From positions 86-64,085 of the forward strand of contig JAFYPA010000075.1 of the NCBI GenBank assembly GCA_017560085.1: DNA of 64,000 nt. The letters are read 5' to 3'. How positions within the stretch are numbered: position 1 is the stretch's first letter; the number at the start of each line of letters is the position of its first letter. The stretch is from Clostridia bacterium. GTDB taxonomy: Bacteria > Bacillota > Clostridia > Oscillospirales > CAG-382. A program made the position numbers and the translations under genes. The notes below the pieces were generated by a model, which made no database searches, was not told where the DNA came from, and saw only the letters and a list, made by a program, of their open reading frames with translations. Below, one piece after another: positions 2,337 through 59,327 of this stretch.

Positions 2337-3740
<1,404 letters not shown>

Positions 3741-41281: not shown

Positions 41282-43393
41282 ATGAAAATTGATAAAGGCA
41301 GTTTTATAAATGATTTTATAGACAAAAATTTGAGACAATATTCCATACCGGTTTATCAACGTAATTACGAATGGTCTGCAGAACAGTGCGAAAAGCTTTT
41401 TGAAGATATCCTCCAGGCTCACGAGCTTGATAGATATCACTTTACCGGTTCTGTTGTTTATTCATTGCTTGAAACAAAAAACAAGATTGATTACTATGTG
41501 ATTATCGACGGACAGCAGAGACTGACAACCATTTACATACTTATAAAAGCTCTTATCGATGTGGCTGAAACGGACGGCGAAAAAGAAGTCCTTACATCGG
41601 TGCTGTTTAATGAAGATAAGTTTAAAAAATATGATATAGATGAGTCCAGCAAATTAAAGCTCAAGCCTATAAAAAGTGATAATATACAACTGCTGTATTT
41701 GATGGAAAATAAAGTTGATAAAATGGATAAATCAAGCGGTATATATAAGAACTACGACCTTTTTTGCCGTTTAATCAGAAATGCTTTGAATGAAGATGAA
41801 AGTCTAAGCATTGAAAAAATATATGATGGTATAGAGCATCTTTCGTGCGCGATGATAAAACTTGAGGAAGAAGAAAAGGGAAAAGAACAGGAAATTTTTG
41901 AGAGAATTAATTCTACAGGTGTCCCCCTGAATCTTGCCGATAAAATTCGAAACTTCGTTCTTATGACGGATGTTGACCAGGAACGTTTGTATGAGGATTA
42001 TTGGCTTGTTATGGAACAGATGCTTGACAATGAATATTTGCCGTATTTCTTTCTTGATTTTTTACACTTTAAGCTTGATGGATTTGTCCGTGAAAAAGAA
42101 GCATACGACGAATTTAAAGTGCTATACCGAAACAAAAAGTATTCTAATGAGCAAATGCTGTCGGAATTGCTTCATTATGCTAAGCAATATAACATCTTTC
42201 TTAAAGGTGACGAAACACTTGGAAAAGATGTTAATGATGCGCTAGATGGTCTTCGTAAGTTAAAGCAATCGACTGTTTATTTGTTTTTGTTCAATGTGTT
42301 CGATGATTACGAAAACGGGGTGATTGGAAAAGAAGAACTGGCAAAAGTTCTTCATTTACTTCTGAATTACAGCATTCGCAGACTTGTTTGTGAAGTTAGC
42401 TCGAACTCCTTGAGAGGATTATACAAAACTCTTCACAAGCGTGTGTTTGCAAAACAGGAAAACAAACTGCATTATTACGATGCAATTGTGTCGTTCTTAG
42501 GGGATTTGACATCGAGAGATGCCATACCGACAGATGATGTTTTTGCTTTTGCTTTGAAAGAGAAAAATCTTTATAGAAAAAATGCTCTTTGTAAATATCT
42601 TCTTGTTGCGGTCGAAAATCAAGGAAAAGAAAAAGTCGATACCGTGACTTTGAGTATCGAACATATTATGCCACAGAATAAAAACCTTTCAAAATCGTGG
42701 CAGGCTATGTTAGGTGATAAGTGGGAACAGGTACACGATAAGTATTTACATACACTTGGCAATCTGACGCTTACCGCTTATAATTCGGAATTGGGAGATA
42801 AGCCTTTTGATATTAAAAAGAATATGCTTGAAAATCCTGAAACACCAACTCATATTACCATTCTTTACAAGGATGTATTGGATAAAGAAGATTGGAACGA
42901 GAAAACAATCACGGACAGGGCGGACAGGTTGATTAAAATTATTTTTAAGTTATTCCCGATAGCGGAAGCTACTGAGAAAATTGATTTTTCCGACCCCAGA
43001 TATCAAGAATATACAGTTGTAGACCCGAGTAATGCAACATACAAGTATGTCAATTATTATGAATTACTTGGTGAAAGAGTTGTTGTTGACAGCTTTGCGG
43101 CTATGGTTCGTTCCGTTTCGGAAAAGTTGTATGATTTGGATAATTCTGTTATAACAAGAATGGCAAAAAACAACGAGCCGTTTCCGGATTGGTTGAATCC
43201 TGTATTTTCATACGATAAAGAGGTTGTTAAGAGTGATTTTGAGCTCAAGAAGGGGACGGGAATCTATATTAGTTCCGGATATTCTGCTTTTGACTGTATT
43301 TGCTTTATCAGAGCGTTATTGAAATTGTATGACATTGACATTCAAGAAGAATTTGTATACAGCGCTCGTTCATATAAAAATGCTGACCAATAA
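41282..43393 (+). CDS. DUF262/DUF1524 (GmrSD-like) nuclease, putative type IV restriction/defence protein
   Basis: N-terminal IPVYQRNYEWSAEQCEKLFEDI and DGQQRLTT (DUF262/ParB-like). C-terminal IEHIMPQN...LHTLGNLTLTAYNSELGDKPF (His-Me/DUF1524). The gene is visibly AT-rich. Confidence 0.8.
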   Translation: MKIDKGSFINDFIDKNLRQYSIPVYQRNYEWSAEQCEKLFEDILQAHELDRYHFTGSVVYSLLETKNKIDYYVIIDGQQRLTTIYILIKALIDVAETDGEKEVLTSVLFNEDKFKKYDIDESSKLKLKPIKSDNIQLLYLMENKVDKMDKSSGIYKNYDLFCRLIRNALNEDESLSIEKIYDGIEHLSCAMIKLEEEEKGKEQEIFERINSTGVPLNLADKIRNFVLMTDVDQERLYEDYWLVMEQMLDNEYLPYFFLDFLHFKLDGFVREKEAYDEFKVLYRNKKYSNEQMLSELLHYAKQYNIFLKGDETLGKDVNDALDGLRKLKQSTVYLFLFNVFDDYENGVIGKEELAKVLHLLLNYSIRRLVCEVSSNSLRGLYKTLHKRVFAKQENKLHYYDAIVSFLGDLTSRDAIPTDDVFAFALKEKNLYRKNALCKYLLVAVENQGKEKVDTVTLSIEHIMPQNKNLSKSWQAMLGDKWEQVHDKYLHTLGNLTLTAYNSELGDKPFDIKKNMLENPETPTHITILYKDVLDKEDWNEKTITDRADRLIKIIFKLFPIAEATEKIDFSDPRYQEYTVVDPSNATYKYVNYYELLGERVVVDSFAAMVRSVSEKLYDLDNSVITRMAKNNEPFPDWLNPVFSYDKEVVKSDFELKKGTGIYISSGYSAFDCICFIRALLKLYDIDIQEEFVYSARSYKNADQ

Positions 43394-43837: not shown

Positions 43838-44642
43838 TTACGGACTGAAAAATAAAGTCGCCATTATTACCGGCGCAAATAACCCGTGGGGTATCGGTGC
43901 CGCTACGGCACTTGCTTTTGCACGCGAGGGCGCAAAGGTCGTTCCGGTGTATAAGAAGGTGGACAGACCTTTTGACCCAACCAAAACCGACCGAAACGGT
44001 GTTGACAGATATTACGGTGCGAATGCCGGTGACGCTTCTGCCGTTGAAGCGAAGCTCAAGGAAACAGGCGCCGATTATCTCATAATCGAGAGCGACATCT
44101 CAGACGAGGACGCCGTGAAGGACATCTACACACAGATCTCCGAAAGATTCGGCAAGGTGGATATTCTTGTGAACAATGCGGCGACCGATGACGAAAACGG
44201 CTTTGATACCATCGAAAAAATCACGAAGAAGGTCATTGACGATACCTTTGCTGTCAATGTTCGCGGCAGTATTCTGATGATGCGCGAGTTTATCAACCGC
44301 CGTGGCGATTTCGGAAGGATTATCAACATTTCCACCGATGCGGCGCAGGTATTCGCAGGTCAGATTACCTACGGCGCAAGCAAGGCTACCCTTGAAGCAT
44401 TGACTCGCAGTATTGCCCTTGAGGTCGCGCAGTACGGCATCACCGTGAATTGCATCGCCCCCGGACCGACACAAACCGGCTGGATTGACGAGGACTTTGA
44501 GAAGGTGGTTGTACCGCTTATTCCTATGGGCAAGCTTATTCAGCCCGAGGATATTGCCGAAGCTGTTCTGTTCCTTTCAAGCGAGCAGGCGAGAATGATA
44601 ACGGGGCAGGTTGTTAAGGTTTCGGGTGGGAAAGGACTTTGA
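43830..44642 (+). CDS. short-chain dehydrogenase/reductase (SDR)
   Basis: VAIITGANNPWGIGAATA, NNAA, YGASKA and PGPTQTG. I place the start at MIDYG (43830), overlapping the TipAS stop. The track ORF start at 43650 is an out-of-context extension. Confidence 0.88.
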   Translation: MIDYGLKNKVAIITGANNPWGIGAATALAFAREGAKVVPVYKKVDRPFDPTKTDRNGVDRYYGANAGDASAVEAKLKETGADYLIIESDISDEDAVKDIYTQISERFGKVDILVNNAATDDENGFDTIEKITKKVIDDTFAVNVRGSILMMREFINRRGDFGRIINISTDAAQVFAGQITYGASKATLEALTRSIALEVAQYGITVNCIAPGPTQTGWIDEDFEKVVVPLIPMGKLIQPEDIAEAVLFLSSEQARMITGQVVKVSGGKGL

Positions 44643-44824
44643 TTTATAACGAGGCAAGCATTTGCTTCGGCAATTGGAAAGCTTACCGTAAACTGACAGG
44701 CTTACGGTAACTTTCTGCGTAATGCACTATGAATAGTATGCTCGTCGAACGACGGGACGATTATTATCTTTTTCGGTGTCTTCACTTATGTGCAGGTGCT
44801 AATCTATAAAAGGGGGAAACGGAT

Positions 44825-46147
44825 GTGTTTTCCAAAATTAAGCTATCGCTCGGCAAAATCAATTATAAGCTTTTTCTAGCACTTATAGTTCTTGGACTCG
44901 TACCGACGATTTACACGACCGTCAGAGTGTTCTTCCTTGGGCAGTTACCCGGAGAGTGGTCGTTCTCAATTGCAGGTCAGCTCTCGTGGGTGAATCTGCT
45001 GTACGAGATTACGAATGAGGCAATCATTCTTCCGCTGTTCTATTTTATAGGTAAGGTGAAGAACGATAAAAATGAATTCTCAAACCGTGTGAGAACGGGA
45101 ATGCTTATTTCATTCGGCGTATATGCTGTTCTTTCTGCTGTGGTACTGATTTTTGCAGAGCCGTTGCTCAAGCTTATGGCGACCGATGCGAGTATTATTG
45201 AAGCATCATCAGGCTACATACGTATTGAGAGCATTGCAAATGTTTTCTCGATACTTACACAGTTCGCACTCGTTGCGCTTGTTACTGTCAATAAGAGCAA
45301 GTACCTGTATGCGCTCACGGGAGCAAAGCTTGTGCTTTGCCTTGTATCTGATACCTTCCTTGTTTCCACTTTGCCTGTGTCGGCAAATCTTGGCGTTAAC
45401 GGTATCGGTTATTCCAACATCATCGTCAATGTATTGTTACTTGCAGTATCTCTCGTTCTTCTTGCAAAGGAAGGCATCAAGGTGCTTGGCAAGTCAAAGC
45501 TCAACTTTGTCTGGACGAAGGAATTTGTCACGGTTGGCGGGATTTCGGGTGTGGAATCACTCGTGCGTAACATTGCATATATGGTGATGATTGCGAGAAT
45601 GGTAAATGTGGTCGGAGAGCAGGGAACATATTGGGTTGCGAACAATTTCATCTGGGGCTGGCTTCTTCTGCCCGTGCTTCAGCTTGGTGAGTTAATCAAG
45701 CAAGAGATCGCAGCCGATAAGGAAAATATCCGTCGCAGCTCGCTTGGGTATTTTGGCATTACGGCAATCATCTCGATACTGTGGTTTGTAAGTATTCCCG
45801 CGTGGAAACCGTTTATGACCTATGTACTTGGATTTACGGATGTAGATAAGCTGTTCAACCTCGTTCTGATTCTCATTGGCTTTTATGTGCTGTATGCTGT
45901 TCAGAATGTGTTTGACTCCACCTTCTACGGGCTTGGCAAAACAAAATATATGCTGTTCGAGTCGGTGGTGACGAATACGATATATTACGGTGTTGCATAC
46001 ATTCTTTACATAACGAATGTGTGGACTCCTACACTTACGGGCATTGCGTTACTGTTCGGAATTGGAAATGCATTTGATAGTGTTGTGTCGCTTGTGGCAT
46101 ATGTGTATTTGCTTAAGAAAGAGAAAATCAATATTCTTAAAGTTTAA
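44825..46147 (+). CDS. polytopic membrane transporter, MATE/MOP superfamily (tentative)
   Basis: 440 aa with about 12 hydrophobic segments. GTG start behind an AGGGGGAA RBS. The family call rests on size and topology only. Confidence 0.5.
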   Translation: MFSKIKLSLGKINYKLFLALIVLGLVPTIYTTVRVFFLGQLPGEWSFSIAGQLSWVNLLYEITNEAIILPLFYFIGKVKNDKNEFSNRVRTGMLISFGVYAVLSAVVLIFAEPLLKLMATDASIIEASSGYIRIESIANVFSILTQFALVALVTVNKSKYLYALTGAKLVLCLVSDTFLVSTLPVSANLGVNGIGYSNIIVNVLLLAVSLVLLAKEGIKVLGKSKLNFVWTKEFVTVGGISGVESLVRNIAYMVMIARMVNVVGEQGTYWVANNFIWGWLLLPVLQLGELIKQEIAADKENIRRSSLGYFGITAIISILWFVSIPAWKPFMTYVLGFTDVDKLFNLVLILIGFYVLYAVQNVFDSTFYGLGKTKYMLFESVVTNTIYYGVAYILYITNVWTPTLTGIALLFGIGNAFDSVVSLVAYVYLLKKEKINILKV

Positions 46148-46185
46148 AACTCGATTTCGTGCTGACAACCTATATAAAATCCCAC

Positions 46186-46214
46186 TTGCATTCTCCCCCA
46201 ATCAATGCTATAAT
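46186..46214 (+). promoter_or_regulatory. sigmaA-type extended -10 promoter
   Basis: TTGCAT, a 17-nt spacer ending in TGC, then TATAAT. The string CAATGCTATAATAAA is shared with the promoter at 39156. Confidence 0.5.
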
Positions 46215-46245
46215 AAATCATCACCCCACCATCAAAGGAGCATCT

Positions 46246-47283
46246 ATGCTAACCTACACATACAAATCCAAAGGCATCTTCGCCTTAACCGAAAAGCCCA
46301 AACCCACAATCCTCCACGAGCGCGACGCCATAGTAAAAGTAACCCTCGCCAGCATCTGCTCAAGCGACCTGCACATCAAACACGGCAGTGTTCCGAGAGC
46401 CGCCCGGGGAATTACGGTCGGCCACGAAATGGTCGGCATCGTGGAAGAAATCGGCTCTGCCGTTACAAATGTAAAGGTCGGCGACCGAGTTACGGTCAAT
46501 GTTGAAACCTTCTGCGGTGAATGCTTTTTCTGCAAGAAAGGCTATGTGAATAACTGCACCGACAAAAACGGCGGCTGGGCACTCGGTTGCCGCATAGACG
46601 GCGGTCAGGCGGAGTATGTCCGTGTGCCATTTGCGGATTGCGGGCTTAATAAAATCCCCGATAACGTATCCGACAGACAGGCGCTTCTCGTGGGCGATGT
46701 TCTCGCTACGGGATTCTGGGCGGCAAGAATTTCCGAAATCACGGAGAACGACACCGTTCTCATTATCGGCGCAGGTCCCACGGGAATTTGTACGCTCCTT
46801 TGTACGATGCTGAAAAATCCCAAGCGCATAATTGTGTGTGAAAAGGACGAAAACCGCCTGAGATTCGTGAGCGAGCATTATCCCGATGTCCTGACGGTAG
46901 AACCTCACGAATGCCTTGATTTTGTCCTCCGAAACAGCGACCACGGCGGTGCTGATGTGGTGCTTGAGGTCGCAGGAGCGGAAAACACCTTCGAGCTCGC
47001 ATGGAAATGCGCCCGCCCGAATGCGATTGTGACCGTGGTTGCACTTTACGACAAAGCTCAGACTCTGCCTCTGCCGGATATGTACGGCAAGAACTTGACC
47101 TTCAAGACAGGCGGAGTTGACGGATGCGACTGCGAGGAGACCTTGAGGCTCATTGCCGAGGGCAAGCTTGATACAGAGCCGCTCATTACGCATACTTTCC
47201 CGCTCTCCGAGATTGAGAAGGGGTATGAGGTGTTTGAGAATAAGTCGGATGGGGTTATTAAGGTTGCGGTGGAGTGTTGTTGA
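46246..47283 (+). CDS. zinc-dependent alcohol dehydrogenase family protein
   Basis: ICSSDLH, GHEMVGIVEEIG, structural-zinc CGECFFCKKGYVNNC, and GAGPTG. I place the start at MLTYTYK behind AAAGGAG. Confidence 0.88.
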   Translation: MLTYTYKSKGIFALTEKPKPTILHERDAIVKVTLASICSSDLHIKHGSVPRAARGITVGHEMVGIVEEIGSAVTNVKVGDRVTVNVETFCGECFFCKKGYVNNCTDKNGGWALGCRIDGGQAEYVRVPFADCGLNKIPDNVSDRQALLVGDVLATGFWAARISEITENDTVLIIGAGPTGICTLLCTMLKNPKRIIVCEKDENRLRFVSEHYPDVLTVEPHECLDFVLRNSDHGGADVVLEVAGAENTFELAWKCARPNAIVTVVALYDKAQTLPLPDMYGKNLTFKTGGVDGCDCEETLRLIAEGKLDTEPLITHTFPLSEIEKGYEVFENKSDGVIKVAVECC

Positions 47284-47387
47284 AGGCCTGACATAAATGG
47301 GGGAAGGTAAAGTGTTTGATTTAGTTAAATAAAACATATTAAAGTTTATTTTATGTTATTTTGATTTGAATAATTGCATAGAGACAT

Positions 47388-47427
47388 CCGACAGGGTAAC
47401 AAAAGAAACCTTGTCGGTGTTTTTTTA
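47388..47427 (+). terminator. intrinsic terminator after adh
   Basis: Stem CCGACAGGG / CCTTGTCGG, followed by TGTTTTTTT. Confidence 0.6.
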
Positions 47428-47615
47428 TGCTTTTTGAAGCGTTCTGACCTCATAGCTTTTTAAGTTACAATGTCTGCTTTGATTTTATAATAACTTGGTC
47501 TTGCTAAAATTTGTTGTTTTATGAATTGAAAAATTCAAAGTCCATATTATGCATACTCCTACTGTCCCACGCATATAAATGAACCAGAAAGCAAAAAGAA
47601 AGGAAAGGTAATTAC

Positions 47616-47777
47616 ATGTTAAACGGAATGTATACGAACGACGTAACAAAAACGGAAAGAGACCGCTTCGTAAGTGAGCTAAAGCTTTTTGTCAACCGTC
47701 GTCTTTTCGATAAGCACATAATATCCGAGGATATGTACATTGCGGCAAAGGAGCTTCTCATGAAGCGTGCCGACTGA
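47616..47777 (+). CDS. 53-aa hypothetical protein immediately upstream of the recombinase (below the ORF-track cutoff)
   Basis: Hand translation gives MLNGMYTNDVTKTERDRFVSELKLFVNRRLFDKHIISEDMYIAAKELLMKRAD. AAAGGAAAGG RBS. Confidence 0.45.
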   Translation: MLNGMYTNDVTKTERDRFVSELKLFVNRRLFDKHIISEDMYIAAKELLMKRAD

Positions 47778-47792
47778 TTTTTAAGGTGCATG

Positions 47793-47820
47793 GTGTGCTG
47801 CTTCGGCGGCACACTTTTTT
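47793..47820 (+). terminator. strong intrinsic terminator between the small ORF and the recombinase gene
   Basis: 9-bp stem GTGTGCTGC / GCGGCACAC (one G-U pair) with a TTCG loop, followed by six T. Confidence 0.65.
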
Positions 47821-47856
47821 ATAAATTCAGGCGTAAAATAAAAAGGAGAAAACAAA

Positions 47857-49572
47857 ATGAACATATATGAAATAAGAGACGAAATGCTGAAAAGGCGCAC
47901 GAGAATTTCTGACTATAAGCTCCGTGTGGTTTATTACGCCCGTGTGTCAACGGACAAAATGGATCAGAGACATTCGCTGGAGGCGCAGAAAAGCCACTTT
48001 GAGGATATGATGAAGCACTACCCCAACTGGACTTTTATCCGTGGCTACGTTGACGAGGGACTCACTGGAACAAGTGTTGACAAGCGTGACAGCTTCCGTG
48101 AGATGATCCGTGATGCTCAGAAAGGCAACTTTGACCTCATCTGCACAAAGGAGGTATCAAGATTTGCAAGAAATACGCTTGATGCAATTTCGTATGCGAG
48201 AAATCTCATAAATTACGGTGTTGCGATATACTTCGAGTTCGACAACCTCTGCACCGCAGATGCCGACTGCGAGGTAAGACTTGTACAGATGGCGAGCCAG
48301 GCACAGGAGGAATCAAGAAAGACGTCGGAGCGACTGAAATTCGGTTTTTGCGAAGCCGTGAAGAAGGGCTCTGTTCTTGGTAACAACAATATCTGGGGCT
48401 ACTGCAAGGACGGTGGCAAGCTTGTTATCGTTCCCGAGGAAGCGGAAATGGTGCGTAAAATATACGATATGTACGTCAGCGAAAGCATCGGTATCAGAGC
48501 CATCGCAAAGGCTGTTTCCGAAATGGGGTACAGGAACAGCAAAGAAAATCCGTTTACGTTTTCCACTATCAAGGGAATAATTACAAATCCCAAATACAAG
48601 GGCTTCTATTGCGGTAACAAAACTCATACGGTGGATTTTTTGACAAGAAAGAAAGCAAACGTATCGCAGGACGAATGGGTGATGTTTGAGGATTACGAAA
48701 AGGTACCGCCCATTGTGTCTGCGGATATCTGGGACAGGGCAAACGAGAAGTTCAAAGCAAGGTCTGAAAGTATGAAAAGCGAAGCGGGAACGAGCTATCA
48801 TAACAAGTACCTCTATTCGGGAAAGCTGGTCTGCAAAGAGCATAACGTCTGCTATCATCACACCACCTACAAATATAAGTCGGGCAACAAGGAGCTCTGG
48901 GCTTGCAGGGAATACGGCAACGGCAACAAGTGCAGAAATCCAATCGTGTACACAACCGAAATGGATGCGGTGATGAAGGAAATTTACGGCAAAATCGTCT
49001 GCGGGAAGACCGCCATTATAAACGACCTTATCGAGCTTTACAAGGAATGCGGAGGCACAAAGGCGATTACCGATTCAAGACACAGAGTGCAGTCGGACAT
49101 AAATGGCATTCTCGCCAAAAAGGACAAGCTTTTTGACCTGCTTATGGATGACAGAATCACGAAGGACGAATTCCAGCAGAGAAACAACGACTTCAACAGT
49201 AAGCTTGAAGACTTAAAGTCAAAGCTTTCCGAGCTTGACGATGAGGAAAGAAAAAGCAAAGACCTGAAGGCATCCATCGAAAGCCTCCGTGCGAGCATAG
49301 AAAGCGAGCTTGACTACACGGACGAGCTTTCCAAAAACGTAGTTGACAGCCTTATTGAAAAAATCATAGTATCCAAGGGTGCGGAAGATAACCGCATTGA
49401 TATGAAGATTTTCTTAAAGCTTCTGCCCGACTCTCTGCAGAGCTTTTCTGAGGAAGCACAGGTTCTTACCTTCGGGGAAGGTGAGGTTTTGTGTACGAGA
49501 GGCGGAAATTCGAGAGCGGTGAGGGAGTATGAGGTTGTGTTTTTGTATGAGCTTTGTTACAGACTTGGATAA
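47857..49572 (+). CDS. large serine recombinase (SpoIVCA/TnpX class)
   Basis: 571 aa. Resolvase catalytic domain VVYYARVSTDKMDQ...SLEAQ...ICTKEVSRFARN. Recombinase domain, Cys zinc-ribbon (CKEHNVC...CREYGNGNKC), then a coiled coil (NSKLEDLKSKLSELDDEERKSKDLKASIESL). Confidence 0.92.
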   Translation: MNIYEIRDEMLKRRTRISDYKLRVVYYARVSTDKMDQRHSLEAQKSHFEDMMKHYPNWTFIRGYVDEGLTGTSVDKRDSFREMIRDAQKGNFDLICTKEVSRFARNTLDAISYARNLINYGVAIYFEFDNLCTADADCEVRLVQMASQAQEESRKTSERLKFGFCEAVKKGSVLGNNNIWGYCKDGGKLVIVPEEAEMVRKIYDMYVSESIGIRAIAKAVSEMGYRNSKENPFTFSTIKGIITNPKYKGFYCGNKTHTVDFLTRKKANVSQDEWVMFEDYEKVPPIVSADIWDRANEKFKARSESMKSEAGTSYHNKYLYSGKLVCKEHNVCYHHTTYKYKSGNKELWACREYGNGNKCRNPIVYTTEMDAVMKEIYGKIVCGKTAIINDLIELYKECGGTKAITDSRHRVQSDINGILAKKDKLFDLLMDDRITKDEFQQRNNDFNSKLEDLKSKLSELDDEERKSKDLKASIESLRASIESELDYTDELSKNVVDSLIEKIIVSKGAEDNRIDMKIFLKLLPDSLQSFSEEAQVLTFGEGEVLCTRGGNSRAVREYEVVFLYELCYRLG

Positions 49573-49647
49573 AAAATCAGACGGTACAGGTGGTGAAGCC
49601 TATGCCGTCTTTTTCATTATATTTGATTGTCGGTATGTCGGTAAGTA

Positions 49648-50289
49648 TTACGAAAAATTAAAATTCTTAAGCAAATCCGCAAACGGCGTAAAGGAAGAAT
49701 TCTCTTCATCCGTTGAATAATATGAGCTGAGCTTCAGCTTCGGCTCACGCTTCATCTTTGCAAAGAGCATCGCCGTGTTTTCCGCATCCACAAGACCGTC
49801 GTGAATGTTCTCGTTGAAGTCTATGTCCGCAATGACAAGTGCCTCGGAAAGGCTGTAGCTCTTGGTGGTCTCCATCTTTTCGCTGAAGGTCTCCTGACAA
49901 TCCTCCCAGCTGTCAAGGAAGTACTCAAGGTCGGGAAGGTCAATTCCCTTGAGCTCCATTTCACGGCGCATCTGATTTTCGTCGCTTACACTCCAGGACA
50001 CAAGCACCGCATCGTCGGGAAGCCAGTCGGAGAACATTTCAAGAGCCTCTCTTGTGGAGGGAGCGGCGAGAGTGTCAATCTTTGTTATTCCCGTAAGCCT
50101 TTCGATGAAGCTGTCTATCTCTCCGAATTCGGGACGGATGTATGTCTTGAATCTGTCCGCAATTTCGTATGTATCGTCAAGAAGCACAGCGCCGATTTCT
50201 ATCATTTCACAGCCTGCGGGGTACTTCTCTCTTACTGTTCCCTTGGGAACTCTGCACATTTCCAAATCTACTATTACGTATCTGCTCAT
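49648..50289 (-). CDS. DEDDh 3'-5' exonuclease (DnaQ/KapD-like)
   Basis: YVIVDLEMC (ExoI), VSWSVSDE (ExoII) and HDGLVDAENTAMLF (ExoIII with His). I place the start at MSRY (50289) behind AAGGAT. Confidence 0.8.
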   Translation of the reverse strand: MSRYVIVDLEMCRVPKGTVREKYPAGCEMIEIGAVLLDDTYEIADRFKTYIRPEFGEIDSFIERLTGITKIDTLAAPSTREALEMFSDWLPDDAVLVSWSVSDENQMRREMELKGIDLPDLEYFLDSWEDCQETFSEKMETTKSYSLSEALVIADIDFNENIHDGLVDAENTAMLFAKMKREPKLKLSSYYSTDEENSSFTPFADLLKNFNFS

Positions 50290-50478
50290 TTCGGTATCCT
50301 TCTTTAATGAATTCTTTTTAGATATTAGCATATTTGTCGTAAAATGTCAATATCGTTTTTGCTTTATGTGAAAAGTATACACCGAAATTTTCGGGTTGAT
50401 TTTTGGGGGTGAAAAATCTCCCTCCGTTGGTTGGCGGAGAGAGATAATTTTTTGTCGGACTACGGAAACAAAGCTAAT

Positions 50479-51495
50479 TTAAAGAATCTCCTTAAAAAGC
50501 TCAATGTTCTCCATACAAGGCTTAAGCTCACCCTTTTCGCACTTCTTTACTATCTCAACGATTTTATCGTTAAAGGGCGTCTTAACACCATGCTTTGCAC
50601 CGAAGGAGCATACGATTCCGTTGATTGCATCAATCTCGCAGGGCTTACCCTTCTTCAGGTCCTGAAGCATGGAGGGCTCAATGCTTCTGTGCTTCTTCAT
50701 CGCTATCGGAATAAGCATGGTCGCAAATATGCGCTTGATTGTACTCTTGTAGTAGAAAAGAGCCGTGATATTCTTGCCCTGCACGGGAGCGAATTTCACA
50801 CCTGCGGCGTGACCTACGTCAATGCATTCCTTCATGCATCTTACCGCAACTCTGCGTGCCTTTTTGTTTTCGGAAACATCACCGAATACACCGCCGACAA
50901 CTGTTCCGAGCCCTGAGAAGGTAGCGTTGATAAGAAGCTTTGACCAGCGTGCGCCGATTAAGTTCTGTTCCTCGTGTACGGGGCACATAAGCTCAAGAAG
51001 AGCCTTCACCTCGGCAAATTTTTCGTCCGTGATGCCGTCCATTTTACCCATATGGAAGGAAAGACTATCCACCTCGCTTGTGAGTGTGCATACACCGGGG
51101 GAGGTGAGAGCCGCGCCCCATTCAACAACGCATCCCATAGTACGGCATTCACCTACGATTTCGGCAATACCCGGCTCGGGAAGTCCGTTCTGAAGGGTAA
51201 CTATTACGCCGTCCTCCGCAAGGAAATCACAAAGGAAGGTTACAACCTCCTTGTTGAAAAGCTGTTTTGTAAGAAGCAGGATAACATCATATTTTCCGCT
51301 CATTTCATCGGGTGTATATGCATTGACCTCTACCGTGAAGTCGTCCGTTCCCGTTACCGTCGCACCCTTTTCCTTAAGTGCTGCGATATGCTCCTTGTTT
51401 CGGTTGATAAGGTCAATCTTACCGCCGTTTTTTGTTATATAAGCACCAAGCACGGTTCCGAGAGAGCCTGCGCCGTATATTGCATAGCGTTTCAT
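50479..51495 (-). CDS. 2-dehydropantoate 2-reductase (ApbA/PanE) family oxidoreductase
   Basis: MKRYAIYGAGSLGTVLGAYI Rossmann fold, and a C-terminal SMLQDLKKGKPCEIDAINGIV block typical of the KPR family. Confidence 0.8.
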   Translation of the reverse strand: MKRYAIYGAGSLGTVLGAYITKNGGKIDLINRNKEHIAALKEKGATVTGTDDFTVEVNAYTPDEMSGKYDVILLLTKQLFNKEVVTFLCDFLAEDGVIVTLQNGLPEPGIAEIVGECRTMGCVVEWGAALTSPGVCTLTSEVDSLSFHMGKMDGITDEKFAEVKALLELMCPVHEEQNLIGARWSKLLINATFSGLGTVVGGVFGDVSENKKARRVAVRCMKECIDVGHAAGVKFAPVQGKNITALFYYKSTIKRIFATMLIPIAMKKHRSIEPSMLQDLKKGKPCEIDAINGIVCSFGAKHGVKTPFNDKIVEIVKKCEKGELKPCMENIELFKEIL

Positions 51496-51499
51496 ATTT

Positions 51500-51943
51500 T
51501 TATTTTACCTCAACCGTGCCGTCAGCCTTAACGGTAATTTCCATACCGTCCTTAACGTATGCGAGGAACTCGTCACCGAGCGAGTCAATAACGGGCATAT
51601 TAACGCCGTCAACCCATACATCAGCGATAATCGCACCTGCCGCCGCAAGGGAGTCGATGTGTCCCGAGAAAAGCATACAAGCGGGATTCTTACCCATAGA
51701 GCAGGCACAGTAAAGAACAAGTCCGCCCGTGGTTGAGCCTATTGTCTGCGGAAGGCAAAGAGCCTTGCCTATAAGGGGCTTTCCGTGAAGCTCGCTGTTG
51801 TTCTGGTCACCGCACTTAACCTGCTTGTCGCCGAACTGAAGTGCCATCTGAAAGGATGCGAGTGTGTTGAAGCCCTGTGTTGTAACAACCGCTTCAGCGG
51901 TTACCTCGCCGGGAGTTATAACTCTGCCCTTGAATGTTTTCAT
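51500..51943 (-). CDS. aconitase X swivel-domain subunit (DUF126)
   Basis: 147 aa, GRVITPGEVTAEAVV...GKALCLPQTIGSTTGGLVL. 1-nt overlap with the DUF521 gene. Confidence 0.75.
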   Translation of the reverse strand: MKTFKGRVITPGEVTAEAVVTTQGFNTLASFQMALQFGDKQVKCGDQNNSELHGKPLIGKALCLPQTIGSTTGGLVLYCACSMGKNPACMLFSGHIDSLAAAGAIIADVWVDGVNMPVIDSLGDEFLAYVKDGMEITVKADGTVEVK

Positions 51944-53217
51944 TATTTTCTACCTCCCGTGATAATTTCGAGTATTTCCGAATCCGTGTAATATCTTGCG
52001 CTTGTATATGTACGAAGCTTGTTGGACGATGTGATAACGGGCATCTTCTTGCAAAGGGGATTGTTCATATACATAAGAGGACAGATATACGAAGTAATAA
52101 CGCCCGCATTTTTAAGTCTTGCGGCATATTCCGTCTTTTCAAATGCTTCGAGCACCTTGGGGGCGGCTGTGAATACGGTAGGAATCACGACCTTCTTGTT
52201 GCCGTTTCTTGTAAGCTCCGCTTCGATGCTTTCTGTCCAGTCCTTTAACTGCTGAAGGGAAAGGTGAGGACATCCCACAAAGCAGAGCTTCGGCTTTGCA
52301 TCGGGATTCTTCCAGATTACGGGATAGTTCTTCTGTACTCTTTCAAGCTCCGCATCGTCGATTATGTATTCCTTCGCGCCCTCTGTGATAAGACCTTCGC
52401 CCATTTCGACAGCTTCGGGTGTGAGGTTTTCGATGTGGTAAAGACCAACAGCACCGTTGGAGGCTGTAGCCGCACCGAAGTCCTTAAGGTAAGCCTTGGC
52501 GCTGTCGTTAAGCTCTGTACCAATCCACTTATCGAGACCTACAACGTAAGGAACGTCCTCCATAACCTTCATACCGATAGCCGAGCCGAGAAGCTGAGCC
52601 TCGGGCTTTTTTGTTGTCTGAATCTTAACAACCCAGGTAGCCCTTCTGCCATCGTCCGTAAGAAGTCCGAAGTAAGGAACATATCCTACGATAGAGCCCA
52701 TAATATCAATAATGCCCGAGTTTCTGTTACATCTCGCACCGAGAACGGAGTTAGCATAAACAACCGCACTTGATTCCGCCCACGAGAGGACATCGCCCTT
52801 CTGCGGGATATTGCCCATTTCGTCCATATAGCAGGTGCAGGTGAACGCATCCTTGCTCATAAGACCGAGCTTTTCAAGCTGTTTTTCATAGAAGTCCTGC
52901 TTTGTGTACATAAACTTATTGAACACAAGATTCTGCAGGAAATTCGCAGGGACATTCTTATCAAGAGGTCTCGGGTCAACAGAAAACTGCTGTTCCGAAA
53001 AAACGCCCGCATCAAGAAGCTGCTGCATCAGATCATAAACGGGAGCCATAACCTTAAGTCCGAACGAAGTAACAAGATGGTTATACTTCGAAGTAACAGG
53101 CACAAGCTTCTCAGCCTCAAACGCCTCACCATACATAACGATGGTCTTCATAACTTTAGCAAGTGTCTCACCTTTCTCTCCGTCGAGAATCGCTTGCTGT
53201 TCTTTGGTAAGTATCAT
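51943..53217 (-). CDS. aconitase X catalytic subunit (DUF521)
   Basis: 424 aa, MILTKEQQAILDGEKGETLAKVMKTIVMYGEAF. Conserved Cys residues are present (CTCYMD, GCPHLS). Confidence 0.75.
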   Translation of the reverse strand: MILTKEQQAILDGEKGETLAKVMKTIVMYGEAFEAEKLVPVTSKYNHLVTSFGLKVMAPVYDLMQQLLDAGVFSEQQFSVDPRPLDKNVPANFLQNLVFNKFMYTKQDFYEKQLEKLGLMSKDAFTCTCYMDEMGNIPQKGDVLSWAESSAVVYANSVLGARCNRNSGIIDIMGSIVGYVPYFGLLTDDGRRATWVVKIQTTKKPEAQLLGSAIGMKVMEDVPYVVGLDKWIGTELNDSAKAYLKDFGAATASNGAVGLYHIENLTPEAVEMGEGLITEGAKEYIIDDAELERVQKNYPVIWKNPDAKPKLCFVGCPHLSLQQLKDWTESIEAELTRNGNKKVVIPTVFTAAPKVLEAFEKTEYAARLKNAGVITSYICPLMYMNNPLCKKMPVITSSNKLRTYTSARYYTDSEILEIITGGRK

Positions 53218-53272
53218 AGTATATATATTCTCCTTAATCTTTATATTGGATTTGTAAGGGACAGTGGACAGT

Positions 53273-53401
53273 GGATGTTGGAAGCTTCGCTTCCTTCAAA
53301 TAAATTCAAATGAAGATTGCGGAGAATACGCAGAATTCTTTGCAATCAACCAAGACCGCTTGCGGTCATAATTGTGCATTGTGCATTGTGAATTGTGCAT
53401 T
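53273..53401. repeat. composite intergenic repeat: GGAAGCTTCGCTTCC hairpin, CCAAGACCGCTTGCGGTC hairpin, then GTGCATT x4 (one unit GTGAATT)
   Basis: Read directly. The modules are shared with 1841-1950. Confidence 0.9.
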
Positions 53402-53442
53402 CCAATTTCGCACATCACCAAGCATCACGCACTAAGTACAGC

Positions 53443-55518
53443 TTAAATCTTCATACAAACGTCCCACGCGCCCCAGATAACAGTGCGCAAATTGCCTACC
53501 TTGGAAGCATCGCCGATAATGTGAACCTTTCCGCCCTTCTTTGCAATCGGTGCGGGATTGTAGCCGACGGAGAGTATAACGGAGTCTGTGTCAATTCCGA
53601 ATTCCTTGCCGTCCTTGTCCTTGACCGTGATACCGCCGTCACGAATTTCGCAGAGGGAGGTTTCGAGATGCACCTCTACCTTGTTGGTCTTGAAGAAGTC
53701 ACGGAGATAGCTTGTGTTTGCAAGGCAGATGCCCTTGCCCGTGATAAGGTCGTCCTGCATTTCTATAATAACGGGTGTCTTGCCCTTGCGGTAGAGGTCG
53801 TATGCGATTTCACAGCCCGTAAGACCGCCGCCGATTACGGCAACCTTGTTGCCTACCTCCGCTTTTCCGAGAAGATAGTCTATCGCTTCAACGGCTGTGT
53901 CCGCACCCTTTACGGGAATCTTCTTTGCTACGGCACCCGTTGCGATTACGATTTCGTCTGCATCGAGTGTCTTTATGTCCGTAATTTCGGCACCGAGCTT
54001 TACTTCAATGGGATGCTTTGAAAGCTCTCTTATGTACCAGCTGATGAGTGCCTTGTCCTTTTCCTTGAAGTCGGGTGCTGCCGCCGCTACGAATACACCG
54101 CCGAGTCTTTCGGACTTTTCGTAAAGCGTTACCGTGTGACCTCTCTTGGAAAGGAGAATTGCCGCCTCCATACCGCCGATACCGCCGCCGATTACAGCGA
54201 CCTTCTTCTGCTTCTTTGCTTTCTTTACGCTGTACTTCTTTGACTGCATTGTTTCGGGATTGAGCGCACATCTTGCAAGTCCCATAGTGTCGGTAAGGTC
54301 CTGAGTGTTTGCGTGTCCCTTTGAGGAGGAGAAGTTGAAGCAGCCCGCGTGACAGCAGATACAGGGCTTGATTTCTTCCATTCTGTCCTCAATCATCTTT
54401 GTAATCCATTCGGGGTCGACAAGGAACTGTCTTGCAACTCCGACAGCATCTATAAGTCCGTCTGCAACAGCCCTTGCACCTACCTCCGCATCCATTCTGC
54501 CCGCACATACTACGGGAATATCAACGAATTTCTTTATGTGTGCAACATCGGCAAGGTTGCAGTTTTCAGGCATATAAACAGGGGGATGCGCCCAGTACCA
54601 GGAGTCATATGCACCGTTGTCGGCGTTGAGCATATCGTAGCCCGCATCCTGAAGATACTTTGCCGCTCTTTCGGATTCTGCCATGCTTCTTCCGACCTCG
54701 GTGTATTCCTCACCGGGCATTGCGCCCTCGCAGAAGCCCTTCATCTTGGATTCTACTGAGTAGCGGAGAGATACGGGATAGTCGCTTCCGCATTCCTTTT
54801 TGATTGCCTTTACTACCTCTGCGGCGAAGCGGTATCTGTTTTCAAAGCTTCCGCCGTAGTCGTCTGTACGCTTGTTGAAGAATTCAATTGCGAACTGGTC
54901 AAGAAGGTAGCCCTCATGCACGGCGTGAATCTCCACACCGTCTACGCCTGCGTCACGGCAGAGCTTTGCGGTCTTTGCAAACGCCTCAATAATCTCGTGA
55001 ATCTGATGGGTTGTCATTTCGGGGCAGATAATATCGTGCGCCCAGCGTGAGGGCTGAGGGCTGGGACAAGCAAGCTCGTGGCTTGTGTCGATAATGGGCT
55101 TCACAAGTGCACGGGTGAACTTATTTTTGTGAAGGGGAGCGACAAGCTCTGTGATAGCCCAGCTTCTGCCCATACCTGCGGTGAGCTGAACAAAGAGCTT
55201 TGCGCCCGTCTTATGAATTTCGTCCATAAATTCACGAAGCTCGTCGAACATCTTGGGATTCTGCCAGAGCCACTTGCCGAAGAAGGTATCACGAAGCGGA
55301 GCGATACCGGGAATGATAAGACCTACGTTGTTATTGGCACGCTCAAGAAAGAGCTTTGCGGCTTCCTTGTCGAAGTGGCAGCCGCCGATTTCGAACCAGC
55401 CGAAGAGCGATGTACCGCCCATGGGACACATTACGATTCGGTTCTTGATTTCAACGTTTCCGATTTTCCAGGGGGTAAACAGCGCCTGATATTTTTCGTT
55501 TATGGTGTTCATATCCAT
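53443..55518 (-). CDS. OYE-type NADH:flavin oxidoreductase fused to an FAD/NAD(P)-binding domain (2,4-dienoyl-CoA / enoate reductase architecture)
   Basis: 691 aa. N-terminal TIM barrel (NRIVMCPMG, HAVHEGYLLDQF), Fe-S Cys motif CICCHAGC...C, then VAVIGGGIGGMEAA and VAVIGGGLTGCE. Confidence 0.85.
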   Translation of the reverse strand: MDMNTINEKYQALFTPWKIGNVEIKNRIVMCPMGGTSLFGWFEIGGCHFDKEAAKLFLERANNNVGLIIPGIAPLRDTFFGKWLWQNPKMFDELREFMDEIHKTGAKLFVQLTAGMGRSWAITELVAPLHKNKFTRALVKPIIDTSHELACPSPQPSRWAHDIICPEMTTHQIHEIIEAFAKTAKLCRDAGVDGVEIHAVHEGYLLDQFAIEFFNKRTDDYGGSFENRYRFAAEVVKAIKKECGSDYPVSLRYSVESKMKGFCEGAMPGEEYTEVGRSMAESERAAKYLQDAGYDMLNADNGAYDSWYWAHPPVYMPENCNLADVAHIKKFVDIPVVCAGRMDAEVGARAVADGLIDAVGVARQFLVDPEWITKMIEDRMEEIKPCICCHAGCFNFSSSKGHANTQDLTDTMGLARCALNPETMQSKKYSVKKAKKQKKVAVIGGGIGGMEAAILLSKRGHTVTLYEKSERLGGVFVAAAAPDFKEKDKALISWYIRELSKHPIEVKLGAEITDIKTLDADEIVIATGAVAKKIPVKGADTAVEAIDYLLGKAEVGNKVAVIGGGLTGCEIAYDLYRKGKTPVIIEMQDDLITGKGICLANTSYLRDFFKTNKVEVHLETSLCEIRDGGITVKDKDGKEFGIDTDSVILSVGYNPAPIAKKGGKVHIIGDASKVGNLRTVIWGAWDVCMKI

Positions 55519-55734
55519 TTTTTCCTTTCGGTAAAATATGAGATTTTTGGAGGGATTGCTTTATTTTTAACAATTATAGCACGTTGTGTGCCGAATGTCA
55601 ATACGATGGATAATTTTTGGCACGGTGAGGCTGCAGAAAATTTGGTAAAAGTGTTGAAATTTGTATTCTGCGGTGTTATAATATAAAATAAGCATTTATC
55701 CACGAAATACGCCAATCAAAGGAGTACCCGAAAT

Positions 55735-58359: not shown

Positions 58360-58445
58360 AAGGAAATATGCTATGAATAATCCGGAGCTGTGATTTTATT
58401 AAATAATCAAAAAAACAAAAATAAATTTCAAAGGAGAAATCAAAA

Positions 58446-59327
58446 ATGTCAAAAGAACTATCAAAGAAAGCCCTTGAGCTCATAAAGAAAATGCAGCAGG
58501 GCGAGCTTACGGAAAGCGTAATTTACGAACAGATTGCAAAATTCGCAAAGGGCGAAGAAAACAAGAAAACCTTGCGCCGTCTTGCCGAAGAGGAAAAGGC
58601 ACACTATGAAATCTGGAAAAGCTACACGGGCATCGAAATGAAGCCGCAGAAGGCGAAGGTGCTCAAGTATAAGCTCCTCGCAAGAATTTTCGGCTTCACA
58701 TTTGCCCTGAAGCTTATGGAAAACGGCGAGGAAAACGCACAGGACAAGTACGCAACACTCTTTGAAGAGGTTGAAGAAAGTAAGCACATCAAGGAGCAGG
58801 AGGAGGAGCACGAAAAGGCTCTTCTCGAAATGCTCGATGAGGAAAGACTTCAGTACGTTGGCAGTATGGTGCTTGGTATGAACGACGCTCTTGTAGAGCT
58901 TACGGGCTCTCTTGCGGGCTTTACCTTTGCAATGGCAAACACAAGACTTATCGCACTTTCGGGACTTATTATGGGTATTTCCGCAACTTTCTCAATGGCT
59001 TCCAGCGAATTCCTTGCGGCAAAGAGCGAGGGCAGAAAGGATGCCTTCAAGTCCTGCTCGTATACGGGCGTGGCGTACCTTATCACGGTTGCACTTCTGA
59101 TTCTGCCGTATCTCCTGCTTGAAAACTCGCAGTATATGATTGCACTTTTCGCTATGCTTGCGATTGTTATTCTGATTATTGCGGGATTCTCCTACTACAT
59201 ATCCGTTGCCAAGGGTGAAAGGTTCAAGCCCAAATTCCTTGAGATGACGGCAATAAGCGTAGGCGTTGCTGTGCTTTCCTTCTTTGTTGGTATTCTTGCG
59301 AAGAAGTTCCTTGGGGTTGACCTTTAA
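58446..59327 (+). CDS. ferritin-like/rubrerythrin domain fused to a VIT1/CCC1 iron-manganese transporter domain
   Basis: N-terminal ELTESVIYEQIA...EEEKAHYEIW four-helix-bundle motifs. C-terminal GMNDALVELTG...SMASSEFLA and hydrophobic helices. Confidence 0.8.
   Translation: MSKELSKKALELIKKMQQGELTESVIYEQIAKFAKGEENKKTLRRLAEEEKAHYEIWKSYTGIEMKPQKAKVLKYKLLARIFGFTFALKLMENGEENAQDKYATLFEEVEESKHIKEQEEEHEKALLEMLDEERLQYVGSMVLGMNDALVELTGSLAGFTFAMANTRLIALSGLIMGISATFSMASSEFLAAKSEGRKDAFKSCSYTGVAYLITVALLILPYLLLENSQYMIALFAMLAIVILIIAGFSYYISVAKGERFKPKFLEMTAISVGVAVLSFFVGILAKKFLGVDL

Follow-up and report, generated by a model that had tools for sequence, protein, structure and literature searches.

Our analysis suggests that positions 47551-49615 of the window (the whole 64,000-nucleotide stretch of Clostridia DNA analysed here) probably constitute a site-specific recombination unit of the rdf-int type, analogous to skr-spoIVCA, in which a 53-residue open reading frame (ORF53) and a large serine recombinase (LSR) would be transcribed as a sigmaE-dependent operon, with a hairpin between the two genes lowering the level of the recombinase. 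The unit lies within an element of ~41.4 kb in spoIVA, which recombination at the ATACATATGA cores would remove whole (Table 1).

The 10-bp core is present in just two copies in the window, and joining the flanks in silico yields an in-frame SpoIVA of 492 aa that matches colinearly the intact SpoIVA of a congener (G004), which is of equal length. With a split mother-cell gene and short identical cores that restore its frame, the element is a putative member of the sporulation-gene intervening elements. Since a single LSR found no related loci when used as query, we searched with an LSR alignment; across ~25 related loci, the elements have only ORF53 and the LSR, ~90 bp at attL and ~170 bp at attR in common. 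The conserved right end holds an attP-type arm, CACTTCTGTTTGCTGCAAGCC, and an outward-facing TTGCAA-17-TAGAAT (60263-60291), and its similarity by blastn reaches leftwards to 60262. The source organism itself is an uncultured MAG.

One could read the unit as a decaying relic, in which excision no longer occurs, spoIVA is permanently split and sporulation has been lost. Such a reading would draw on the entirely host-like cargo, with 45.7% G+C compared with 46.1% outside the element, and on near relatives that carry deletions adjoining the module. However, both halves of spoIVA are open and join in frame, the LSR and ORF53 remain intact, with a conservation among relatives close to that of spoIVA (67-70% versus 70-79% identity), and the att cores are identical with conserved arms. 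We consider decay highly improbable.

Table 1 Features of the spoIVA element and its recombination unit, in window coordinates.
Feature	Position	Strand	Remarks
spoIVA 5' part	start 17736		
attL core ATACATATGA	18933-18942	+	inside spoIVA; ~90 bp on the element side kept in G002 and G005
Terminator-like hairpin with T7	47388-47426	+	after an alcohol-dehydrogenase gene; read from the sequence, loop exceeds the limit of the scan
sigmaE-type promoter motif GCATA-N16-CATATAAAT	47551-47580	+	35 nt from the end of the -10 to the ORF53 ATG
ORF53, candidate recombination directionality factor	47616-47777	+	53 aa
Intercistronic hairpin GGTGTGCTGC-TTCG-GCGGCACACT with T-run	47792-47820	+	scan and fold
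LSR	47857-49572	+	571 aa; Pfam; catalytic motif YARVSTD; RBS AAGGAG at 47843-47848
LSR gene terminator, GACGG...CCGTC with T5	49582-49615	+	scan
Lineage-specific cargo block, ~10.5-10.6 kb	49640-60168	.	approximate boundaries; between LSR terminator and conserved right end
DEDDh exonuclease	49648-50331	-	RNase_T Pfam match, E = 6.4e-19; convergent with LSR, in cargo block
Conserved right end of the element	60169-60341	+	aligns with the LSR-to-attR spacer of G005, G002 and L046
attR core ATACATATGA	60342-60351	+	spoIVA 3' part to 60623, stop codon 60624-60626

Pfam places a Resolvase domain (PF00239, E = 1.9e-24) at residues 24-172 of the LSR and a Recombinase domain (PF07508, E = 7.9e-22) at residues 193-301. 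The catalytic motif is invariant among six orthologues, on which PF13408 (Zn_ribbon_recom) is also recorded, and conserved Cys/His residues lie at 326-359. A catalytic domain with its nucleophilic serine, a Recombinase domain, a zinc ribbon and a putative coiled-coil C-terminal region, as judged from these domains and Cys/His residues, make the protein a member of the large serine recombinase family. Orthologues with 61-71% identity adjoin the spoIVA 3' fragment, hairpins homologous to the LSR terminator also stand 3' of the gene in G002, G005 and L046, and neither Pfam nor further searches found a second recombinase in the element.

The small ORF upstream of the recombinase lies exactly where the original prediction had placed it. 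It is preceded by an RBS, AGGAAAGG, 8 nt upstream, and encodes a product of 6.4 kDa (pI 8.1) for which AlphaFold2 predicts a hairpin of two helices (pLDDT 87). Its family comprises 67 representatives at E <= 1e-3 among 1.84 billion proteins, and the profile matched 3 of the 201 genomes of the order. Eight aligned close homologues are 51-55 aa long and share 21 invariant residues, and the core motif of the family reads ELKLxINxxLFxKxxITExMYxxAKExILK. ORF53 is found immediately 5' of the LSR in all 16 close loci, weaker matches stand upstream of LSRs of 43% and 39% identity, and one member of 33% identity is situated 0.9 kb away from an LSR, in surroundings of conjugative type. This conservation argues that ORF53 is a genuine gene tied to the LSR.

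The HMM check of the 53-aa protein against known families, proposed earlier, found none among the curated families of Pfam, NCBIfam and PHROGs that it matches; a tblastn search of 50,697 phage records was equally negative, the HMM gave only chance matches among PDB sequences, and Foldseek of the model against the PDB retrieved generic helical hairpins at E > 1. One of the Foldseek matches is a serine-integrase chain (9dxh_A, E = 5), which we do not count as evidence. ORF53 itself has no match to SHOCT or SHOCT_2 (PF09851, PF20612); family members reach ~17 bits with SHOCT_2 against a gathering cut-off of 24 (E about 0.006), a resemblance only. We also considered ORF53 as a copy of the LSR coiled-coil, and discarded this idea as having no sequence support, since hhalign of the family against the LSR gave a probability of 0.3%.

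Directionality factors of large serine integrases form a functional class and not a sequence family, defined by a requirement in attL x attR recombination and by inhibition of attP x attB recombination. Like them, ORF53 is small, shares an element with its integrase and is genetically linked to it, in the 16 close loci and in several distant ones. The earlier suggestion of an accessory or directionality role gains from the conservation and constant length of ORF53, its place directly 5' of the LSR in all orthologous loci inspected and its sigmaE-type motif, and we regard ORF53 as a candidate directionality factor by position and analogy. It might instead be a small regulator, an oligomerisation peptide or an addiction-type passenger, with excision carried out by the LSR alone or by another factor, as could be argued from the lack of homology to described directionality factors or DNA-binding folds in the profile, PDB and Foldseek searches, from the resemblance to SHOCT-like domains, which are of unknown function, and from members in G199 and G218 that have no LSR within their short flanks. 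This is quite improbable in view of the tight linkage and co-orientation of the two genes, which hold across 33-96% identity, and of more distant spoIVA-element LSRs, which are likewise preceded by a small ORF whose G.I(T/S)..Y motif is similar; moreover, every large serine integrase studied needs such a factor for excision (PMC5595907, PMC11795197).

The non-coding DNA at 47284-47615 is AT-rich, as had been described (30.7% G+C versus 45.8% for the window), and the hairpin after the alcohol-dehydrogenase gene isolates the module from the leftward cargo. The sole TGTAACA-like (SpoIIID-box) match in the window falls in the loop of this upstream terminator; the consensus is loose. The sigmaE-type motif upstream of ORF53 occurs, in its strict form, twice in the 128 kb of both strands of the window, and its clade form is ATA-N16-CATAYWWAT. 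Positions 8-9 of its -10 nonamer are AT, whereas position 8 is T in the sigmaE consensus of Bacillus. ATA-N16-CATA is present upstream of ORF53 in 7 of 7 lineages, at a chance of 1.5-7% each in dinucleotide shuffles, and in 15 of 16 further species-representative loci. It also precedes spoIVA in 7 of 10 relatives, a count that rises to 9 of 10 when the -35 is relaxed to A[AT][AT], and spoIVA is a sigmaE target (PMC5025042). In C. difficile, the -10 boxes of sigmaE and sigmaK are alike and the -35 is ATA for sigmaE versus AC for sigmaK (PMC3789822). The motif upstream of ORF53 is consistent with a sigmaE-type architecture, with the sigma assignment relying on the spoIVA calibration.

Between ORF53 and the LSR, the scan returned a stem-loop at 47792-47815 with 10 pairs (6 G-C) and a TTCG loop, followed by a T6 run reaching 47820 that leaves 36 nt to the LSR ATG, in agreement with the terminator hairpin foreseen in front of the recombinase. 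A G+C-rich stem-loop followed by a U-run, as in an intrinsic terminator, is thus found in the window, with a folding energy of -17.4 kcal/mol. For the 79-nt spacer as a whole, the z-score is just -1.6, so that the description 'strong' rests on the stem and T-run and not on a statistical outlier. Across eight lineages, 95.6% of cells are paired, with four compensatory pairs; the 6-bp core of the stem is invariant, which suggests a sequence-level constraint that a plain attenuator leaves unexplained. The U-run is degenerate in G002, G005, L034 and L047, and in G002 it is replaced by TGTTACTG. While the hairpin is kept in the sub-clade of the window, it is missing from five orthologous lineages. 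Since the two genes follow each other at 2-52 nt in nine related lineages, with the hairpin missing, ORF53 and the LSR are best read, from sequence, as a two-gene operon. The hairpin, terminator-like as it is, is here read as an attenuator that lowers recombinase output relative to its partner.

In the window, the hairpin and T6 resemble an efficient terminator and read-through may be low, in which case the LSR may have a promoter of its own that we did not recognise. Taken further, the hairpin would be a full terminator and the LSR constitutive, with ORF53 alone timed to sporulation, which would mirror SPbeta (sprA, sprB) and the C. difficile skin element (CD1231, CD1234). The 10 pairs and T6 of the window's sub-clade fit this arrangement, as do -10-like TATAAAT, CATAAAT or TATATT sequences after the stem in several lineages and the constitutive expression of CD1231 and sprA (PMC5025042, PMC6957869). 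However, no lineage has an acceptable -35 at 16-18 nt, the sigma-70 scan of 47780-47856 was empty, the T-run is gone in G002 and the nine hairpin-less lineages leave just 2-52 nt between the genes, so that we judge an independent LSR promoter unlikely. A sigmaA or mother-cell promoter between hairpin and LSR was rejected as a candidate, as neither motif was found by scans or inspection. For recombinase expression, read-through or a sporulation promoter overlapping the terminator had been put forward; the hairpin-less sisters indirectly favour the former, and the suggested scan of 47284-47856 for mother-cell motifs located the sigmaE-type motif upstream of ORF53 instead of at the hairpin.

The distance from attL to the start of the LSR is 28,915 bp and that from its end to attR 10,769 bp, as claimed. 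A reading of this internal position as a special design is not supported; the position is the extreme of a continuum. Among 14 informative species-representative loci, eight have a gap of 32-190 bp between the LSR and the spoIVA 3' fragment, four one of 0.9-2.7 kb and two one of at least 3 kb; in the window the gap reaches 10.77 kb. In L047 and L050 the LSR likewise abuts the spoIVA 3' fragment; in L046, whose right flank is the same as that of the window, the gap is 1.86 kb. Genes inserted in the wider gaps resemble toxin-antitoxin, AAA-ATPase, Fic and HTH genes by their sequences, with Pfam support for those of L046 only (ATPase_2/DUF234). The LSR lies deep inside the element because this lineage gained ~10.6 kb of metabolic genes behind it, and since the recombinase acts in trans, its distance from the element ends does not matter.

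The gained block includes the predicted convergent exonuclease gene. We rejected this gene as part of the module, in which it had been included, and count it as cargo, as it is missing beside every related LSR. By Pfam, the block further contains a ketopantoate-reductase-like gene, the small and large subunits of AcnX, an OYE/FAD reductase, a GH38 mannosidase, a VIT1-family protein and a Sir2 deacetylase. No related element contains the block by blastn and tblastx, which detect no cargo similarity between elements, and the left-hand cargo is wholly different from species to species. The right-end 170 bp of the window align with the LSR-to-attR spacer of relatives, which places the insertion point at most ~50 nt after the LSR terminator. 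In the congener G004, the N-terminal part of OYE neighbours a gene homologous to one in the spoIVA flank, and a separate short contig carries the AcnX genes together with the 3' end of OYE. A foreign origin of the cargo was discarded, as its G+C equals that of the flanks and its AcnX and OYE orthologues in this element-free congener are 84-90% identical in amino-acid sequence. The view that cargo accreted around an ancestral cassette is supported, with a cassette abutting attR in most relatives, a lineage-specific right block and variable left cargo, and the spot after the LSR terminator takes up cargo repeatedly in this element family.

We propose that, after asymmetric division, sigmaE RNA polymerase would start at the conserved motif upstream of ORF53, which is of the same kind as that before spoIVA. 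By linkage and by analogy with Skr, GirX, CD1234 and SprB, ORF53 may act as the directionality factor that lets the LSR join attL and attR. The hairpin would halt some transcripts, leaving ORF53 in excess, and read-through transcripts would supply the LSR. Recombination at the cores would then take out the 41.4 kb and restore spoIVA, an outcome seen here as the frame-restoring junction. The ancestral order would have been ORF53, LSR, terminator, a spacer of ~130-170 bp and attR, and the lineage of the window would later have gained ~10.5 kb of host-type metabolic genes right after the LSR terminator.

Large serine integrases are genome-engineering tools in wide use and, to our knowledge, their directionality factors are not findable by homology. 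We tentatively raise the possibility, which we consider less likely than not, that ORF53 represents a new directionality-factor family serving one LSR clade, and that the LSR-attR spacer traps host genes, which are deleted at sporulation. If so, the family would consist of fairly widespread helical hairpins of ~50 aa, free-standing and engaging the coiled-coil or the second DNA-binding domain of the LSR; recognisable by position and HMM, it would form a candidate integrase-directionality factor pair with the LSR clade and the 10-bp core. The spacer in domesticated spoIVA elements would be a preferred landing place, for example of the AcnX-OYE cluster, and the onset of sigmaE activity would delete tens of kb of ordinary metabolic genes from the chromosome of the mother cell. 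The mother cell requires spoIVA early on, and an excision unit with the sigmaE-type promoter of its target gene would be a simple answer to this timing problem. Our comparison illustrates the evolution of a domesticated intervening element, in which just the att sites and the rdf-int unit persist while the rest turns over, including host metabolic genes that come to lie within the excised DNA.

The unit adds detail to a known picture and is no new kind of system. As in the Bacillus subtilis skin element (PMC6957869), a mother-cell sporulation gene is split and a small rdf gene (skr, 64 aa) lies directly 5' of the LSR gene in the same orientation; skr-spoIVCA has a mother-cell promoter dependent on sigmaE and SpoIIID (PMC6957869), to which the sigmaE-type motif found here would correspond. 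However, skr and spoIVCA share 101 nt in different frames, whereas a 79-nt gap with a terminator-like hairpin separates the genes here, and the skin element has sigK as target and a defective prophage as cargo, in place of spoIVA and metabolic genes. The gin element in gerE of Bacillus cereus ATCC 10987 (PMC5595907) is likewise non-viral (~29 kb), splits a sporulation gene and pairs an LSR, GirC, with a tiny partner of 42 aa, GirX, that has no known motif. Both are expressed in sporulation, and GirX is needed for excision, blocks integration and works best at a fourfold excess over GirC (PMC5595907). Unlike ORF53, girX lies several genes from its recombinase gene, and gin has three recombinases where the spoIVA element has one. 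The C. difficile skin element (PMC5025042) is also clostridial, its LSR lies immediately 5' of the 3' gene fragment, as in most relatives of the window, and its small directionality-factor gene, CD1234, has a sigmaE-type promoter (PMC5025042); CD1234, however, is apart from the constitutive CD1231, is also controlled by SpoIIID (PMC5025042) and encodes an acidic protein, in contrast to ORF53 with its pI of 8.1. SPbeta in spsM (PMC5499854, PMC11722253) is an active phage, with sprA and sprB outside a common operon and an additional stress-inducible promoter for sprB, yet it shares with the spoIVA unit an LSR and a small factor under a sporulation promoter (sigmaE/K), and its SprB binds the second DNA-binding domain of the LSR and redirects the coiled-coil (PMC5499854, PMC11722253).

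The window, which corresponds to bases 86–64085 of contig C65 of a 3.1-Mb MAG (128 contigs), contains exactly two copies of the 10-bp core ATACATATGA, at 18933 and 60342. The element-side arms, gctgtagcaaacagaagtg and cacttctgtttgctgcaagc, are imperfect inverted repeats, and joining the flanks in silico gives a 492-aa SpoIVA that is colinear with the intact SpoIVA of the congener G004. The recombinase, 53-aa ORF (ORF53), hairpin, convergent exonuclease gene and AT-rich leader of the original prediction were all present, with the large serine recombinase (LSR) located 28,915 bp from attL and 10,769 bp from attR. No second recombinase was found elsewhere in the 41.4-kb element. A GmrSD-type restriction gene in the left-hand cargo is the sole clearly defence-like gene of the element.

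Features of the split spoIVA locus, its recombination module and its cargo
Feature	Position	Description
spoIVA 5' part	17736–18977	413-aa frame; SpoIVA ATPase and middle domains
GmrSD-type restriction gene	41282–43393	GmrSD_N and GmrSD_C; 36–37% G+C island
Leader of ORF53	47284–47615	30.7% G+C
ORF53	47616–47777	53 aa
Intercistronic hairpin	47792–47820	10 pairs, TTCG loop, T6
LSR	47857–49572	Resolvase and Recombinase domains
Exonuclease gene	49648–50331	RNase_T/DEDDh; convergent to LSR
AcnX–OYE spacer	~53260–53410	
Right-end spacer	60169–60341	final 170 bp before attR
Outward promoter motif	60263–60291	sigmaA-type
spoIVA 3' part	resumes ~60339	last 94 codons; C-terminal end GLICIIL

Orthologous LSRs occur in two genomes of the same genus, G002 (70% identity) and G005 (67%), and in both of them a 53-aa ORF lies directly 5' of the LSR and the spoIVA 3' fragment ~170 bp 3' of it. 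Comparison of the window with ~90 kb of these elements (blastn, tblastx) revealed only four common parts, namely spoIVA, ~90 bp inside attL, the ORF53–LSR module and ~80–170 bp inside attR. Public contigs recovered via ORF53 homologues (L034–L039, L046, L047 and L050) agree with this arrangement: the spoIVA 3' fragment stands directly 3' of the LSR in L034 (GCA_045606185), in the five metagenome contigs L035–L039 and in the metagenome contig L047, overlaps a 547-aa LSR by 4 nt in L050, and follows a single 463-aa ATPase gene in L046 (GCA_054295225), which also carries the GH32 and GNAT genes of the window's right flank. L050 belongs, together with L007 (from genome G037), L008 (G013) and L009 (G011), to a second group of spoIVA-splitting elements with LSRs 36–39% identical to that of the window; these are inserted ~9 codons further downstream in spoIVA, and their LSR frame (open frames of 626–659 aa) either continues into the spoIVA 3' fragment or overlaps it.

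Scanning species-representative genomes with an LSR alignment yielded 16 loci (≥61% identity), hosted by Clostridia/Oscillospiraceae-type MAGs from human, sheep and deer gut. The LSR ends 32–190 bp from the spoIVA 3' fragment in 8 of the 16, 0.9–2.7 kb from it in four and at least 3 kb in two; in the remaining two, contig ends cut the interval short. By sequence, the genes filling these gaps resemble toxin–antitoxin pairs, AAA ATPases, a Fic protein and HTH regulators. The 10.77 kb of the window is thus the extreme of a continuum, and not a special design.

The right-end spacer aligns with the LSR-to-attR spacer of G005, G002 and L046, including an outward-facing TTGCAA-17-TAGAAT box, and a conserved terminator (GACGG...CCGTC) directly follows the LSR, which together place the insertion of a ~10.5-kb block within ~50 nt after the terminator. 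This position, and the fact that the LSR of relatives mostly adjoins the spoIVA 3' fragment, bear out the idea that cargo accreted beside an ancestral cassette; the exonuclease, proposed as part of the module, has no counterpart beside any related LSR and simply heads the inserted block. In L046, the lone inserted gene is bracketed by two copies of a ~55-bp promoter segment, which hints at duplication-associated insertion at the spot after the LSR. The outward box, which in the window and its relatives reads TTGCAA-17-TAGAAT or TAAAAT, is a well-formed sigmaA-type promoter motif aimed at attR and the spoIVA 3' fragment, which itself opens with an in-frame ATG inside the core. The motif is kept in G005 and L046 and disrupted in G002; it is also seen at ~3305–3335 in the compared locus L006, and on both sides of the inserted ATPase gene in L046 (after 4440 and before 6300).

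Besides the exonuclease, Pfam identifies in the block a ketopantoate-reductase-like protein, both AcnX subunits (small and large), an OYE/FAD reductase, a GH38 mannosidase, a VIT1 protein and Sir2. At 47.0%, the G+C content of the block is in line with the chromosome's 46.1%, and G004, with its intact spoIVA, has AcnX and OYE orthologues of ~80% nucleotide and 84–90% amino-acid identity, which counters an imported origin for the whole cargo. In G004 the N-terminal part of OYE adjoins a homologue of window ORF 11082–11819, a left-flank gene of spoIVA; a separate short contig carries the AcnX genes together with the 3' end of OYE. These orthologues and their neighbour imply that the element captured at least some of its cargo from DNA native to the genus. 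The right flank of the intact spoIVA (L087, contig C134 of G004) is homologous to contigs C111 and C120 of G000, not to the window's GH32 gene, so the spoIVA neighbourhood has been rearranged within the genus. The AcnX–OYE spacer has counterparts at ~45 other places in its own genome and at many in both G001 and G002, as 30–60-nt pieces of 85–100% identity that are probably dispersed heptamer-repeat arrays. Turnover is also seen left of the module in the near relatives L040 and L041 (LSR nucleotide identity 95% and 76%), both of which carry MatE and ADH deletions: compared with window 44367–47279, most of the ADH gene is gone (L040 1355–1477, L041 1–472) and L041 also lacks the MatE gene, which shows that the left-hand cargo is still decaying.

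Upstream of the ORF53 start, the motif ATA-N16-CATA(T/C)WWAT is present in all seven independent lineages, in leaders that are otherwise unalignable, with CATA starting 44–66 nt before the ATG; each occurrence is matched by chance in 1.5–7% of dinucleotide shuffles of its own 150-nt leader. The motif precedes ORF53 in 15 of the 16 species-representative loci, and a stricter form has only two matches on both strands of the window, one being the ORF53 site. As a calibration, 7 of 10 relatives were found to have the ATA-N16-CATA architecture in front of spoIVA itself, most with a nonamer ending in AT; the motifs of G002 and G004, for example, read GTCATATT-N14-CATATCCAT. In the window, spoIVA carries ATT at −35, and allowing such relaxation raises the count to 9 of 10. 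In C. difficile, sigmaE and sigmaK −10 boxes are alike, with a −35 of ATA for sigmaE and AC for sigmaK at a spacing of 16–18 bp (PMC3789822), and spoIVA is a sigmaE target (PMC5025042). Taken together, these points suggest, at the level of motifs, that ORF53 is preceded by a sigmaE-type promoter. Such a reading makes biological sense, since spoIVA is required before sigmaK appears.

The hairpin between ORF53 and the LSR has a stem (GTGTGCTG...CGGCACAC) kept in nine lineages, with loops of 4–9 nt; in an eight-sequence alignment, 95.6% of cells pair, four pairs show compensatory changes and six are invariant. A strong T-run follows the stem in the window's sub-clade and in L046; other lineages have a weaker one (TTTCTTC), and G002 has none. 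In L041, a ~14-nt unit (GATGTAAAATAAAT-like; ~800–905) recurs about five times in tandem within the hairpin-to-LSR spacer, extending it to 134 nt. If the hairpin were a full terminator, the LSR would need a constitutive promoter of its own that has escaped recognition, the situation of sprA and CD1231 being constitutive expression. We consider this less likely, because a motif scan of the interval between hairpin and LSR detected no sigmaA-type or ATA/AC-N16-CATA motif, the sporulation-type motif lying upstream of ORF53 and not at the terminator, and because related lineages lack the hairpin, with only 6–52 nt between the genes in the orthologous L061, L062, L066, L068 and L076, 2 nt in Bacilli MAGs and 11 nt in L077. 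The simplest reading is that ORF53 and the LSR form a putative rdf–int operon, within which the window's sub-clade gained an intercistronic attenuator. An attenuator would yield more partner than enzyme, fitting the fourfold GirX excess over GirC that is optimal in vitro (PMC5595907), and the proposed operon would mirror skr–spoIVCA, transcribed from one sigmaE and SpoIIID promoter (PMC6957869).

Strong evidence tying ORF53 to the LSR comes from genomic linkage: it lies upstream of the LSR in all 16 close loci. The family is rare; among 201 genomes of the order, 3 have it. Eight close homologues (51–55 aa) have 21 invariant residues in common, and their profile, run against 1.84 billion representatives, retrieved 67 small proteins (35–131 aa) at E ≤ 1e-3 with the core ELKLxINxxLFxKxxITExMYxxAKExILK. 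Weaker family matches precede 43%-identical LSRs in Bacilli MAGs, which likewise adjoin the spoIVA 3' fragment, and an LSR of 39% identity; another member, 33% identical, is 0.9 kb away from the LSR of a TraG-bearing element. This last locus, L049 (Logan SRR10512954 contig), is a conjugative-type element with TraG/TrwB and ClpP-like genes, a ParE/RelB pair inserted between the ORF53-family gene and a 549-aa LSR, and no spoIVA fragment nearby, so the partner family is not confined to sporulation-gene elements. In G037, G013, G011 and G036, whose spoIVA-element LSRs are 36–40% identical, unrelated-looking small upstream ORFs have a similar G/K.I(T/S/P)..Y motif. AlphaFold2 confidently models ORF53 as a helical hairpin (helices 5–32 and 38–52, pLDDT 87), for which fold and sequence searches returned no meaningful relatives. 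ORF53 matches no curated family, and members of its family give consistent SHOCT_2 matches below threshold (17 bits, where the cut-off is 24). The small ORF thus stands as a candidate accessory factor through its linkage, and would be assigned to the directionality-factor class solely from its position, its size and its inferred regulation.

The LSR is clearly a member of the large serine recombinase family. Sporulation genes known to be split include sigK, spoIVFB, spoVR, spsM, gerE and yabG, and a prophage interrupts kamA, a gene under sigmaE control in the mother cell; the split genes named in these two papers do not include spoIVA (PMC6957869, PMC10747680). Our analysis adds a calibrated sigmaE-type motif, a comparison of operon and hairpin, and an internal LSR position explained as a derived cargo insertion, part of it of host origin. 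By analogy, the unit described here would work like the att–rdf–int–att recombination units that skin, SPbeta and gin define.
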